A stretch of 61,667 bases of DNA, the filler included, from Alphaproteobacteria bacterium (GTDB lineage: Bacteria > Pseudomonadota > Alphaproteobacteria > Caedimonadales > UBA9215): NCBI GenBank assembly GCA_024280495.1. It is 7 parts of 7 records of this genome, joined end to end, with 100 filler letters (N's around TTAATTAATTAA, not from the genome) between each part and the next. Parts side by side here need not be neighbours in the genome. Positions count along the whole stretch, not along the records: positions 39,142 to 42,918 come from JAJRPZ010000060.1; 6 more parts are not named here. One strand, written 5' to 3'. Position numbers and translations under genes: made by a program. The notes beneath the pieces were generated by a model. It did no database searches. It was not told where the DNA came from and was given only the letters and a program-made list of their open reading frames with translations. Shown here one piece after another: positions 2,256-55,536 of this stretch (position 1 is its first letter; each line of letters begins with the position of its first letter).

Positions 2256-3770
2256 TTAATGATGATCAAGTTTTTCGCGTAAAATATCATTAATGGTTTT
2301 GGGGTTTCCGTTACCTTGCATGGCTTTCATAACTTGACCAACAAAAAATCCAAAAAGTTTATCTTTACCACCGCGATATTGCTCAACTTTATCCTGGTTA
2401 TTTGTAATAATTTCATCAACAATAACGTTAATGGCACCGTCGTCGCTTACCTGTTGTAGGCCTTTTTCTTCGATGATGGATTTTGGCATAGCACCACTCT
2501 CCCACATATCAGGGAAAATTTTCTTGGCTATTTTTCCTGAAATCGTGTCATCTGCAATAACGTCAACAAGTTCAGCCAGCATTTCTGGAGTGATTTTAGA
2601 ATCTCTGAGTTCAACATTTTCTTTATTAAGAAAACCAAATAATTCACCAGTCAACCAGTTCACTAAGAGTTTAATACTGCTTGAGCTTTTATTTTGAATT
2701 TTTAACAGAGCACCTTCGAAATATGCAGACGTATCTATATCTGCTGTCAAGACTCCTGCGTCATATGAGTTCAACTCATAATCAGCCTTATAACGCTTTT
2801 TCTTTTCATCAGGTAATTCTGGCATAGTGCTTTTAATACGATCCACAACATTTTGAGAGATAACCAAAGGTGGTAAATCAGGATCTGGGAAATAACGATA
2901 ATCGTGGGCGTCTTCCTTTGAACGCATGGAACGTGTTACGCCTTTAGCGGGATCAAAAAGACGCGTTTCTTGAATGACTTTTTCACCATGTTCTAAAAGG
3001 TCACGTTGACGATCAATTTCGTAAGCAATGGCCTGCCCCATAAAACGAATGGAGTTCACATTTTTAATTTCAGCCCGCGTCCCAAGTTCAGCACCTGGGC
3101 GACGTAATGAAATATTCACGTCAGCACGCATACTGCCTTGCTCCATGTTCCCATCACAAGTTCCAAGACATCGCAAAAGAGACCGTAATTTTTTTACATA
3201 GGCTTGTGCCTCGGCAATACTGCGCATATCAGGGTCAGAAACAATTTCCATCAAAGCGACACCACAACGGTTTAAGTCAATATAGGTTTGTGTTGGATGT
3301 TGATCATGGATACTTTTTCCAGCATCTTGTTCCAGATGTAAACGCTCAATACCAATACGGCGTTCCATTATATTTTTATCTTGATCTTCGATTTCAATAT
3401 CAAGGTGCCCCTTACCAACAATAGGCGTTTTAAATTGTGAAATCTGGTACCCTTGAGGTAAATCCGCATAAAAATAGTTTTTACGGTCAAATAAAGAAGT
3501 TAAGTTGATTTTAGAATCAAGGCCCAATCCTGTTTTAATGGCTTGCTCAACACATACGCGATTAATAACAGGTAACATGCCTGGAAATGCCGCATCAACA
3601 AGGGAAACTTGTGTATTCGGATCTGCACCAAAATTTGTTGAAGCCCCTGAAAAAAGCTTGGCTTTAGAGATAATCTGAGCATGAACTTCAAGACCAATCA
3701 CCAGTTCCCAGTAACCTTCTTGTCCTTTAATCCACCTTGGATCAACTTTATTCTCTACAGTTTTATTCAT
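2256..3770 (-). CDS. gatB: Asp/Glu-tRNA amidotransferase subunit B
   Basis: [37 protein letters not shown] and YRYFPDPDL motifs. Confidence 0.98.
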
Positions 3771-5546: not shown

Positions 5547-5616
5547 GACGTTATTTCCTTAATTTTATTATTAAGATATAGATCCAAATCTTGTAAGGCA
5601 AGTTTTTTTGATTTTA

Positions 5617-5716
5617 NNNNNNNNNNNNNNNNNNNNNNNNNNNNNNNNNNNNNNNNNNNNTTAATTAATTAANNNNNNNNNNNNNNNNNNNNNNNNNNNN
5701 NNNNNNNNNNNNNNNN
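5617..5716. other. Artificial contig-joining spacer
   Basis: N44-TTAATTAATTAA-N44, with stops in all six frames. Confidence 0.98.
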
Positions 5717-17478: not shown

Positions 17479-17578
17479 NNNNNNNNNNNNNNNNNNNNNN
17501 NNNNNNNNNNNNNNNNNNNNNNTTAATTAATTAANNNNNNNNNNNNNNNNNNNNNNNNNNNNNNNNNNNNNNNNNNNN
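17479..17578. other. Artificial contig-joining spacer
   Basis: N44-TTAATTAATTAA-N44. Confidence 0.98.
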
Positions 17579-26679: not shown

Positions 26680-26786
26680 TATGGTTGTTTCAAAAAAAAT
26701 CTAGTCTAGGAGCGAGGGACCAACGCCTACAACTTATAGGCGCGGGAGTGATTGACGACGTCTGGGATGTTTATGGAATGACTATA
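26680..26786 (+). repeat. 107-bp TA-bounded palindromic repeat (MITE/RPE/ERIC-like), full copy
   Basis: Imperfect TIRs TATGGTTGTTTCAAAAA / TTTATGGAATGACTATA; central CGCCTAC-AACTT-ATAGGCG hairpin; core shared with 39142-39235 (-) and 55450-55536 (+); lies between convergent glyS and sdhB. Confidence 0.85.
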
Positions 26787-38900: not shown

Positions 38901-39041
38901 GTAACAGGCTCATGAACCCCATCTTTTTTTAGTATTTTGAATTGTGTAAGTTGATCTCTATTGATTAAACAATGGAGATTTCAATGACTACTGACCGCAC
39001 TGCCTTTAAGCCCAGGAATGGGACAAACTCACACACTCCGA
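38901..39041 (+). mobile_element. IS66-family left end (partial, at contig end)
   Basis: Starts GTAACAGGCTCATGAAC, an imperfect IR of the right end GTAAACAGCTCACGAAG; identical to 42778-42918. Confidence 0.82.
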
Positions 39042-39141
39042 NNNNNNNNNNNNNNNNNNNNNNNNNNNNNNNNNNNNNNNNNNNNTTAATTAATTAANNN
39101 NNNNNNNNNNNNNNNNNNNNNNNNNNNNNNNNNNNNNNNNN
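39042..39141. other. Artificial contig-joining spacer
   Basis: N44-TTAATTAATTAA-N44. Confidence 0.98.
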
Positions 39142-39235
39142 AAAATATCCCAGACGTCGTCAATCACTCCCGCTCCTATAAATCATAGGCGTTGGTCCCT
39201 CGCTCCTAGACTGAAACCTTTTTGGAGTGACTATA
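39142..39235 (-). repeat. 107-bp palindromic repeat copy (last 13 bp cut by contig start)
   Basis: Reverse complement TATAGTCACTCCAAAAAGGTTTCAGTCTAGGAGCGAGGGACCAACGCC... aligns without gaps to 26680-26773. Confidence 0.88.
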
Positions 39236-41067
39236 TTTTTCTTCTTTTTTGTTTTTTTATATGCCCCCTCTGTAAAGCAGCACAAATACCAGAAATCAAA
39301 GTCCATGGAACGCCCTTACCGTTTGAGCCACAAACAATTAAGAAAAAAGAAATTCAAGTCAAACAGCACAAAAGTATCCTCTCCCTATTCAAGTCCCACC
39401 CAAGTGTCATAGTTAAAGACTTGAATGGCGTTGCAACTCTCTCCATTCGGGGCGCAAGCACAGCCCACAGTCTCGTTATTATCAATGGGATTCAAATGAA
39501 TGATCCCAGCATCAATAATGTCTTTAATGCCAATGCATTGAATTTGGAAAACATTGAAAAAATAGAAGTTCTTACGGGGGCCAAAGCTGCTTATTATGGC
39601 AATGGAGCACTTGGCGGCGTGATTTCCATAACCCTAAAACACCCAAGCTTACAAAAAAGCAGTTCTACTACTGTCAAATATTGCGGACACCTAACCCTTG
39701 AATCTGGTACAAATGGACATAATATTCAAAATATAAAGGGAGATTTTTCGAAATCAAAAATAGCTGCTATTGCCGCCCTCAGCCGACAAGAAAGTGGACT
39801 CATCCAACGAAAAAATAAAACACATGGCACCTTGAATAGTGATTACAATAAATCAGAAACGGGAACAATTCTCTTACATGGAAAAACACTTTCCTGGCAT
39901 GAATTTAGCCTCCTTGCCCAAGGAGAACGCCATCATCAAAACACAGATTCTTTTCAAGGAGGTGCCTCTATTTTTTTTGGTGATACTGCCATAACTCACG
40001 CAACACGCTTTGCTCTCTCCAACAAATTAAGACTTATTCCCAATAAATGGCGTCAAGATATCACCCTTTCACAGATGACTCTCCGTCGAACATATAACAA
40101 TGCTGACAATGACTTTCATCCTGCTTCTATCACGACTTATAAAGGGCAACGCCAACATATTTCTACCACAGCCCACATATTCCTGAATGAAGCACTAAAT
40201 CTTGATATTGGGGGATATCTTACAAAAGAACAAAGCTATATTTCCACGTTAAAAACAAAACATAACACCCACCTAAAGGGTGCCCATACAAAACTTATCT
40301 GGGATACCAGTGAGACCCTCTCTTTTTTTGCTGCAACGAGGCTGGACCATCACTCTACCTACGGTAAGATTTTAACATGGCAAGCAGGCTCACACATCGA
40401 TTTATCCCCTACCCTTGTTTTTGAGGGGAATATTGGCACAGGTTTTAAATACCCAAGCCATTCGACTCTTTTTAAAAGCCCCCTTCAAGTGGCAAATCCA
40501 AATGCCAATCCTGAACGCTCTTTTTTAATGGATTTTAGCCTTGAAAAACGATTTTTAAAACCAGACCTAAATATAAAAATCACTTATTTCCATACAATAA
40601 TTAAAGACGTCTTGACATGGGATAGGCCTTCCAGGCAAGTAAAAAATCATGAAAAACGCCGCATTCATGGCCTAGAATTATCCCTTGCTGGGAGCCTATT
40701 GAACAACAGAATTGATTATAATTTTTCCTATACACACCTTAATGCCAAGGAACAAAAAACAAAGAACTCACCTTTTTCACGAACTTTAGACACACCTCGG
40801 CACAAAATCACGGCTAATTTAACCTATCATTACGCCAGCAAAACCTCCCTTTTCATAGAGGCTGTTCATAAAACGAAAAAAATAGATTATAATTCAAGGA
40901 CTTTAAACAGGGCAACTGATTTAAGGCTCGGGGCCTCCCATCAAGCAACACCGAATGCCAAGGTATATGGCCGCATTGAAAATGCCCTAAATCAAAAAAC
41001 CGAAAACGTTTATGGCTATGGTAGACGCGGCATCACCTTTATAGTAGGCCTTAAATTAAACACTTAG
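39142..41067 (+). CDS. TonB-dependent receptor (BtuB-like), 5'-truncated
   Basis: The frame of ORF 39421 is open back to the contig start and includes a signal-peptide h-region (YIFLLFCFFICPLCKA); plug motifs SIRG...LVIINGI, IEKIEVLTG...YGNGALGGVI; barrel with RIENALNQ. Confidence 0.85.
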   Translation, partial: KISQTSSITPAPINHRRWSLAPRLKPFWSDYIFLLFCFFICPLCKAAQIPEIKVHGTPLPFEPQTIKKKEIQVKQHKSILSLFKSHPSVIVKDLNGVATLSIRGASTAHSLVIINGIQMNDPSINNVFNANALNLENIEKIEVLTGAKAAYYGNGALGGVISITLKHPSLQKSSSTTVKYCGHLTLESGTNGHNIQNIKGDFSKSKIAAIAALSRQESGLIQRKNKTHGTLNSDYNKSETGTILLHGKTLSWHEFSLLAQGERHHQNTDSFQGGASIFFGDTAITHATRFALSNKLRLIPNKWRQDITLSQMTLRRTYNNADNDFHPASITTYKGQRQHISTTAHIFLNEALNLDIGGYLTKEQSYISTLKTKHNTHLKGAHTKLIWDTSETLSFFAATRLDHHSTYGKILTWQAGSHIDLSPTLVFEGNIGTGFKYPSHSTLFKSPLQVANPNANPERSFLMDFSLEKRFLKPDLNIKITYFHTIIKDVLTWDRPSRQVKNHEKRRIHGLELSLAGSLLNNRIDYNFSYTHLNAKEQKTKNSPFSRTLDTPRHKITANLTYHYASKTSLFIEAVHKTKKIDYNSRTLNRATDLRLGASHQATPNAKVYGRIENALNQKTENVYGYGRRGITFIVGLKLNT

Positions 41068-41841: not shown

Positions 41842-41934
41842 GGAGGGGTGGCCGAGTGGCTGAAGGCGGCGGTTTGCTAAACCGTTATACGGGTACTACC
41901 TGTATCGTGGGTTCGAATCCCATCCCCTCCGCCA
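41842..41934 (+). tRNA. tRNA-Ser(GCT)
   Basis: GGAGGGG/CCCCTCC acceptor stem, anticodon arm GCGGT-TTGCTAA-ACCGT, long variable arm, GTTCGAATC, encoded CCA. Confidence 0.97.
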
Positions 41935-42918: not shown

Positions 42919-43018
42919 NNNNNNNNNNNNNNNNNNNNNNNNNNNNNNNNNNNNNNNNNNNNTTAATTAATTAANNNNNNNNNNNNNNNNNNNNNNNNNN
43001 NNNNNNNNNNNNNNNNNN
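42919..43018. other. Artificial contig-joining spacer
   Basis: N44-TTAATTAATTAA-N44. Confidence 0.98.
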
Positions 43019-47730: not shown

Positions 47731-47830
47731 NNNNNNNNNNNNNNNNNNNNNNNNNNNNNNNNNNNNNNNNNNNNTTAATTAATTAANNNNNNNNNNNNNN
47801 NNNNNNNNNNNNNNNNNNNNNNNNNNNNNN
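47731..47830. other. Artificial contig-joining spacer
   Basis: N44-TTAATTAATTAA-N44. Confidence 0.98.
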
Positions 47831-50733: not shown

Positions 50734-50833
50734 NNNNNNNNNNNNNNNNNNNNNNNNNNNNNNNNNNNNNNNNNNNNTTAATTAATTAANNNNNNNNNNN
50801 NNNNNNNNNNNNNNNNNNNNNNNNNNNNNNNNN
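50734..50833. other. Artificial contig-joining spacer
   Basis: N44-TTAATTAATTAA-N44. Confidence 0.98.
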
Positions 50834-55449: not shown

Positions 55450-55536
55450 TATAGCTGGTTCAAAAAGGTTCCAGTCTAGGAGCGAGGGACCAATGCCTAT
55501 AACTTATAGGCGCGGGAGTGATGGAATTGTAATATA
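55450..55536 (+). repeat. Internally deleted copy of the 107-bp palindromic repeat
   Basis: TATAGCTGGTTCAAAAAGGTTCCAGTCTAGGAGCGAGGGACCAATGCCTATAACTTATAGGCGCGGGAGTGA, then a jump to the TGGAA... end. Confidence 0.82.

Follow-up and report, generated by a model that had tools for sequence, protein, structure and literature searches.

An IS630-type miniature element in signal-peptide n-regions of an alphaproteobacterium, and its probable in-frame insertion into a TonB-dependent receptor

We analysed a stretch of 61,667 nucleotides (the window) from the genome of an Alphaproteobacteria bacterium (GenBank assembly GCA_024280495.1, G000 below), in which the open frame of a TonB-dependent receptor begins, at the very start of contig G000:C84, within a copy of a short palindromic repeat. 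Judged by its ends, the repeat is a MITE (miniature inverted-repeat transposable element) that shares them with an IS630-family insertion sequence. We consider it fairly probable that this MITE inserted in frame into the n-region of the receptor signal peptide and is removed with the signal peptide at export. Two complete loci in the same genome, one of them lptD, hold a start codon, the element and a hydrophobic core in one frame. The interpretation, partly supported, is largely right in kind and is unproven for the receptor gene. The features that carry the argument in the window are the following.

39042..39141, no strand: artificial, non-genomic contig joint; contig C83 ends at 39041 and C84 starts at 39142.

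39142..41067, plus strand: TonB-dependent receptor open frame, 641 codons and a stop (41065-41067), its 5' end lying off the contig.

39142..39235, plus strand: element copy, positions 14-107 of 107; 94 bases, 93.6% identical to the consensus, reading KISQTSSITPAPINHRRWSLAPRLKPFWSDY.

39235..39279, plus strand: putative signal-peptide hydrophobic core and c-region, IFLLFCFFICPLCKA, from the translation and its alignment to the G002 orthologue (LLSFFFLLITLVKA).

39421..39423, plus strand: TTG, the first in-frame ATG, GTG or TTG (codon 94), within the Plug region.

Window position 39142 is base 1 of the 3777-bp contig C84, and the receptor frame is open from there: translation gives KISQTSSITPAPINHRRWSLAPRLKPFWSDY, then IFLLFCFFICPLCKA, then AQIPEIKVHG. 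Pfam places Plug (PF07715) at residues 64-160 with 67.3 bits and the beta-barrel (PF00593) at residues 259-564 with 77.7 bits, both above the cut-off, and this order of Plug domain and then beta-barrel is that of a TonB-dependent receptor. An earlier note on this DNA had described the same 641 stop-free codons and the same residues, had seen no ATG, GTG or TTG in frame between the repeat and the hydrophobic region, and had placed the start within or upstream of the repeat. All of this was confirmed, and the choice between the two places can be narrowed. The TTG at 39421, lying inside the Plug region, is implausible as the native start. Within the genus we found a single orthologue of the receptor, in G002 (36% identity over residues 33-637). 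Its sequence begins MRLLSFFFLLITLVKA; L3 of this orthologue pairs with F33 of the window protein, and its M-R stands against the final residue derived from the element and the initial residue of the core, directly before the aligned core. With no canonical start after the element and the G002 M-R directly before the core, the comparison supports a receptor start upstream of the repeat. The signal peptide would be cleaved after CKA. Receptor homologues at 24-28% identity carry the source (JGI) name vitamin B12 transporter, and a large protein collection held no close relative of the receptor, the best match being 25-28% identical and the receptor's own record not being among the matches listed.

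A BLAST search with a consensus hand-built from an alignment of the copies gave matches of 35 bp or more at 43 loci of the 1.14-Mb G000 assembly. The 19 full-length copies measure 107 bp (14 copies), 108 bp (3) or 106 bp (2) and have the ends TATAGTCA...TGACTATA, which agrees with the length of 107 bp, or 105 bp and 35 codons net of one TA, given in the earlier note. Copies open with TATAGTCATTCCAAAAA and close with its reverse complement, forming terminal inverted repeats of about 25 bp around a small central hairpin; as DNA, the hairpin fold of the element is valued at -22.3 kcal/mol. Nearly all copies start with TATA and finish with TATA. No longer flank duplication was seen, and a TA duplication is inseparable from the inverted repeat without an empty site. 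The C84 copy starts at element position 14, its first 13 bases lying off the contig. In the window, a 24-mer taken from the repeat is found at two places, whereas shuffled sequences give an expectation of 0. The element is short and multicopy, has terminal inverted repeats and a stem-loop, codes for no transposase and shares its ends with an insertion sequence, as bacterial MITEs do. Two further copies lie in the window.

26680..26786, minus strand: full-length copy of 107 bp (G000:C83:9102-9208), intergenic, with two stops in the coding frame.

55461..55525, minus strand: partial copy of about element positions 32-96 (G000:C87:4628-4692), between two open frames.

The origin of the element is suggested by two transposase loci. 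At G000:C36:12432-12830 we found a DDE_3 transposase remnant (PF13358, 94.4 bits against a cut-off of 28.6) whose frame stops within GAAACCTTTTTGGAATGAGTATA, inside an inverted repeat that is two mismatches from the right end of the element. In another genome of the genus, G003, contig C67 (locus L070 1058-1967) carries a 910-bp unit, both ends of which match the element and which encloses a DDE_3 transposase in two overlapping frames. Because its ends match those of the 910-bp unit and of the remnant, the repeat is best read as an IS630-type MITE. Target duplication of TA is a property of the IS630 family. As in IS630 / Tc1-mariner insertion sequences, the ends match and the TA termini fit a TA duplication, whereas the element has no transposase of its own. 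We found no intact transposase gene in the G000 assembly, which is 89% complete, and repeats in metagenome-assembled genomes (MAGs) often fail to assemble. Each of the two transposases (G000:C36:12197-12892 and G003:C67) is split between two overlapping frames. The switch from one to the other lies near a run rich in A (ITHKKN / KSLIKKT), and either decay or a programmed frameshift could account for it.

A DNA search with the C51 copy of the element gave matches in G000 and in three of the four other same-genus genomes, and the same query found none in the 26 genomes searched outside the genus. The exact right-end 22-mer occurred in 17 stretches from three MAG records titled Alphaproteobacteria or Holosporales bacterium, in a scan of species genomes from which the organism's own genome was possibly excluded. 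Rfam returned no family for the element, only a tRNA. Among nine loci examined, the sister-species copies are 105-106 bp long, differ in the interior and have stops in the frame used in G000. The copies of G002, G003 and G004 (loci L027-L037) form a subfamily of their own in each species, 72-82% identical to the G000 query copy, and have a different stop-free frame, which among the copies examined is on the opposite strand in those of G002 and G004 and in others. Such per-species subfamilies suggest separate bursts, or homogenisation within each species.

Only one of the six frames of the G000 consensus, plus frame 1 (IVIPKTSQTSSITPAPISYRRWSLAPRLEPFWNDY), is without stops, and it is the frame joined to the receptor. 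Besides the C51 copy, six of the 18 other full-length copies are 107 bp long and open in the coding frame, and 12 have stops or indels. Of the 43 loci, four are entirely contained in a stop-to-stop open frame of 120 codons or more, each with the element at the 5' end of the frame: the receptor (C84), lptD (C51), a gene on C61 and rarA (C49). The RarA copy (G000:C49) was rejected as a coding insert, since a GAGGG-ATG start lies downstream of the element; it is a 5' leader copy whose frame is open by accident. The coding copies are therefore three of 43 loci, all in signal-peptide n-regions and none within a mature protein. Most of the remaining loci lie between open frames and a handful overlap a frame edge; by a crude measure, 88% of G000 lies under open frames of at least 110 codons. 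Many copies begin 0-5 bases from the ends of long frames (G000:C30:4003, C53:17271, C53:5615, C63:1410, C26:3657 and others), and in five cases copy and frame end overlap by 30-49 bases. It seems common for the element to insert at a stop codon (TAA, TAG) or beside it, or to replace a C-terminal tail. In the relatives G002-G004, none of 93 matches was stop-free inside an open frame of more than 125 codons, one frame of the relatives' elements having been searched.

The evidence that carries the reading comes from the two sister loci, in which both sides of the element are assembled.

G000:C51:5607-8048 (locus L011 1608-4049): lptD with a full 35-codon element between the first nine codons and the hydrophobic core.

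G000:C61:7366-7845 (locus L012 1367-1846): gene for a 159-aa exported protein of no Pfam family, with a truncated in-frame copy in its signal peptide.

The C51 protein has the Pfam domains LptD, LptD_N and OstA_2, and its ATG at 5607 overlaps the last codons and the stop of lptG (GAAGATGGATAA). The same lptG overlap is present in an order-level orthologue, G019, in which LptD begins MDKVYRF (MDKVYRFLLFCSIFLG). In G000, LptD begins MDKTFMRTS, continues with the element (TVIPETSQTSSITPAPISYRRWSLAPRLEPFWKDY) and then with IQILLTLFILISRSYG, and enters the mature part with DAQVLLDTKE. The closest LptD orthologues (51-59% identity) have signal peptides of about 20-45 residues, most of them 20-35, with no insert, followed by ADSVILIDTKA, ADTVVLIDTKT or similar. 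Taking the 105 bases out of the G000 sequence by eye leaves MDKTFMRTSIQILLTLFILISRSYG, a normal signal peptide of 25 residues. The gene call for LptD in the collection is 808 aa long and includes the element peptide. A scan of genome contigs with LptD gave as its sole match an unrelated Saprospiraceae.

The C61 protein begins MIRKN, followed by 23 residues from element positions 1-70, then IMFFLVAFSFSILKA and RELSVNNQLYVEI (RELS). Its G002 orthologue reads MRKQLRFVTLFLSFFSVFPLSLLA and then NELTINNELFVEI (NELT), with no insert, and has a similar purine (GGA)-rich stretch ahead of its ATG. All four same-genus genomes that were searched have a conserved form of this protein, as do three genomes at greater distance. 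Read by eye, the cores and c-regions IFLLFCFFICPLCKA (receptor), IQILLTLFILISRSYG (LptD) and MFFLVAFSFSILKA (C61) align with the signal peptides of the orthologues. In both lptD and the C61 gene, comparison with insert-free orthologues places the ancestral start upstream of the element and the core directly downstream. In-frame insertion in an intact gene, of the kind seen with Rickettsia palindromic elements (RPEs), is thus found for LptD and C61, in the signal peptide, while the upstream part of the receptor is missing. The earlier note had looked to other in-frame coding copies absent from orthologues as a check, and these two loci supply them. The net charge of the added segment, as counted, is +4 for the visible receptor part, +2 for LptD with native residues included, and +5 for C61. 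A Tat twin-arginine motif, YRRWSL, was considered in the element peptide and rejected: judged by eye, it departs from the Tat consensus, and the beta-barrel cargo uses Sec.

We propose the following course of events for the receptor. An IS630-family transposase acting in trans would have placed the element into a TA dinucleotide within the first few receptor codons, between the charged n-region and the hydrophobic core of the signal peptide. With a net gain of 105 bases, in the single stop-free orientation and phase, the receptor frame would be kept, and the pre-protein would gain about 35 residues, net positive, ahead of the core. Because the insert would sit ahead of the native core and cleavage site, signal peptidase would remove it along with the signal peptide at export and leave the mature receptor unchanged. 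Discarded in this way, the insert would be tolerated such that selection would leave copies only in intergenic DNA and in signal-peptide n-regions. For the receptor we infer the start and phase, translation through the element, export and cleavage; continuity of its frame upstream of the contig is suggested by analogy with the sister loci and by synteny.

The synteny points to where the receptor start should be. In G002, the receptor ATG lies 10 bases past the rlmH stop. In G000, rlmH occupies C4:2724-3185, and 7 bases follow its stop before contig C4 runs out at 3192; by tblastx, the G002 locus is collinear with the end of C4 and then the start of C84. Given this synteny and the end of C4 just past rlmH, the receptor start should sit in the unassembled, probably short gap between C4 and C84, which must also contain the 13 missing element bases. 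Read from the sequence, the phase of the element in the receptor frame needs a codon ending in T before ATA-GTC-ATT-CCA, which would put the start two or more codons upstream of element base 2. Extending the contig to the start codon, which the earlier note had proposed, did not bridge this gap, but synteny places the start after rlmH. The public contigs that match the region number three: a 102-base repeat unitig of another copy, an exact match of 156 bases at 39313-39468 and a repeat match of 34 bases. The gap is bridged by none of them. The missing left end of the element is absent from the last 60 bases of every contig end in the bin. The end of C69 was ruled out as a partner of C84, its element copy running in the opposite orientation. 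That copy (G000:C69:23595-23663) makes C69 a second contig ending within the element, so that the repeat breaks the assembly in at least two places.

Several points weigh against an in-frame insertion in the receptor. Its start codon is outside the assembly, so that the upstream phase and continuity are predicted. The adjacency of C4 and C84 rests on synteny with a single genome, in which the receptor is 36% identical; no usable receptor orthologue came from the three remaining genomes of the genus. The end of C4 has no element sequence. A search of public runs found one that contains the organism (22% of sampled words), and its contigs did not extend C84; the receptor, used as protein query against metagenome contigs, brought up no relative, and an exact 25-mer from the end of C4 had no match in metagenome contigs. 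Openness from the contig start is weak evidence, because the frame is stop-free in the consensus and in six of the 18 other copies anyway, and the phase shared by the in-frame cases is partly ascertainment, because they were found by asking for open frames. In the sister loci, a TTG just after the element in lptD and an ATG directly after it in the C61 gene are possible alternative starts. A hairpin right after the start codon could hinder translation, and the signal peptides are predictions made by eye.

Some of these points also favour a different history, in which the insertion severed the receptor from its start. The gene would then be a recent pseudogene, or would be poorly translated from a non-canonical codon at or inside the right end of the element, such as ATT at 39235 or CTG at 39211 (giving MKPFWSDY and then the hydrophobic core), and the open frame would be incidental. 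Apart from the unassembled start and the stop-free consensus, this history draws on the chance of only one in three of landing in the right phase even in the right orientation, and on the small size of the genome (1.14 Mb); reduced genomes often carry pseudogenes. The 641-codon frame is nevertheless intact and aligns end to end with its orthologue, despite six differences from the consensus in the 94 element bases. The two complete sister loci speak in the same direction, and lptD is normally essential. No Shine-Dalgarno-like sequence was seen before the CTG or the ATT, an ATT start would give a signal peptide without a charged n-region, and CTG and ATT starts are rare in bacteria. We regard a severed start as unlikely, though it deserves to be taken seriously, and favour an element translated as part of the receptor pre-protein.

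The position of the junction at a contig end raises a second alternative, that the arrangement is an assembly artefact or a population polymorphism. Reads of other copies may have been joined to the receptor, or the insertion may be present in some cells only, which would account for the contig break at this point, the dominant allele having an ordinary short signal peptide. The contig starts within a 43-copy repeat, a setting in which assembly is least to be trusted, and of all copies only those at the C84 start and the C69 end stand at a contig end; C4, again, ends in sequence free of the element, and the sole public run with the organism covers the locus as two short contigs. On the other hand, 94 bases of contig precede the point at which the element gives way to unique sequence (C84 bases 94/95), the C84 copy has substitutions of its own and is identical to no other listed copy, and without the element the downstream sequence still has no start codon of the kind needed. 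We judge an artefact or polymorphism improbable against an insertion that is really present in the receptor gene.

A third alternative is that the element is kept for regulation, its hairpin in the 5' mRNA adjusting how stable the transcripts of exported-protein genes are or how well they are translated, a role that has been proposed for Correia and ERIC, with the peptide as a by-product. As RNA, complete copies form a long hairpin far below shuffles (C51 copy, z -3.2; C36 copy, z -6.5), which the truncated C84 copy of 94 bases does not (z -1.2). Many copies lie hard against gene ends, and RNA-level effects of MITEs are covered in a review (PMC2229807). The 193-base LptD 5' region, taken whole, shows no better fold than its shuffles, however (z -0.85), and the truncated C61 copy has lost its right arm and hairpin while the frame was still kept. 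Copies also occur in both orientations, scattered beside unrelated genes. Regulation as the reason for retention therefore seems very improbable, and insertion of a selfish element into a part of the pre-protein that is discarded remains the explanation that we prefer.

In-frame insertion of a MITE is already described, and the confinement to signal peptides is a modest twist on it. RPEs lie in frame within conserved protein genes (Ogata et al. 2000, 2002; summarised in PMC2229807 and PMC10969869). Like the present element, they are described there as short palindromic selfish repeats of a small alphaproteobacterial genome whose open frame is fused within intact genes. In the same accounts, RPEs are about 150 bp long, occupy internal sites in many metabolic proteins and have no known transposase partner, whereas the element is 107 bp long, has IS630-type ends and TA termini, and has coding copies only in n-regions; the two are set apart here by the RPE descriptions, not by sequences. 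The earlier suggestion of an RPE-like selfish insert therefore stands as to in-frame n-region inserts in LptD and C61, but the origin is an IS630-type MITE and the receptor start is unassembled.

By structure, the element resembles the RUP of pneumococcus, which, according to PMC2229807, is 107 bp long, has inverted repeats like those of IS630-Spn1 and TA target sites, and is proposed to derive from IS630-Spn1 and be mobilised by it; a TA target duplication is stated there for IS630-Spn1. The element shares the length, the IS630-type ends, the TA sites and the presumed mobilisation. Compared by description, RUP is intergenic, has no open reading frame and belongs to another phylum, whereas the element has one stop-free frame and three in-frame coding copies. 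In-frame fusions of MITE open frames to host genes are reviewed in PMC2229807 for RPE, ERIC, the 107-bp form of Correia/NEMIS and YPAL, and again in a 2024 review (PMC10969869); QMITE fusions of this kind are reported from Coxiella in PMC5896051. In one YPAL case, the exported protein YPO1552, the MITE supplies part of the signal peptide (PMC2229807). The fusions of Correia/NEMIS, ERIC, YPAL and QMITE are described in these texts mostly as C-terminal extensions, new small open frames and internal inserts in hypothetical proteins. In contrast, the present element extends signal peptides that already exist, adding to their n-region, in conserved proteins that are exported or belong to the outer membrane (LptD among them), and the native core and predicted cleavage site are kept. 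The literature searched contained no report of the element, and none of a MITE inserted into the signal peptide of LptD or of a TonB receptor, which does not prove that no such report exists. The earlier idea of an undescribed family is accordingly sustained for the repeat itself, with no Rfam family and no report found, but not for the kind of event.

The remaining layout of the window matters chiefly for what may be read as a neighbourhood. The G000 assembly has 99 contigs, 1.14 Mb and 39.5% G+C, and the window joins seven separate contigs (G000:C80 and C82-C87), so that across the joints the neighbourhood is not genomic.

5617-5716, 17479-17578, 39042-39141, 42919-43018, 47731-47830 and 50734-50833: the six joints, each of N runs and the six-frame stop linker TTAATTAATTAA.

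41842-41934: tRNA-Ser (GCT), also on C84, downstream of the receptor.

A wider reading is that, in a genome as reduced and gene-dense as G000, the n-region serves as a safe harbour for selfish DNA in coding sequence, and that G000 carries a local subfamily, 35 codons long, with a single stop-free frame and net positive, which was shaped or filtered for life in pre-proteins, LptD's among them, and is discarded at export. We offer this tentatively and think it more doubtful than the insertion itself; shaping or filtering is suggested because the sister-species copies are 105-106 bp long, have stops and include no coding copies (0 of 93, in one frame). If this were true, long n-regions might modulate targeting. 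Extended signal peptides are said to modulate targeting in some autotransporters.

For the lineage, whose relatives are labelled Holosporales, the element offers a checkable case, outside Rickettsia, of mobile DNA within intact genes. It also bears on annotation, as gene callers give such genes long, odd N-termini, as the LptD call does, or miscall their starts, and on MAG assembly, as assemblers break contigs at such repeats. The inserts would be a natural test of how long an n-region is tolerated before export fails. They would also suggest a simple rule for the survival of inserts in coding sequence, namely that they persist in the part of a pre-protein that is discarded.

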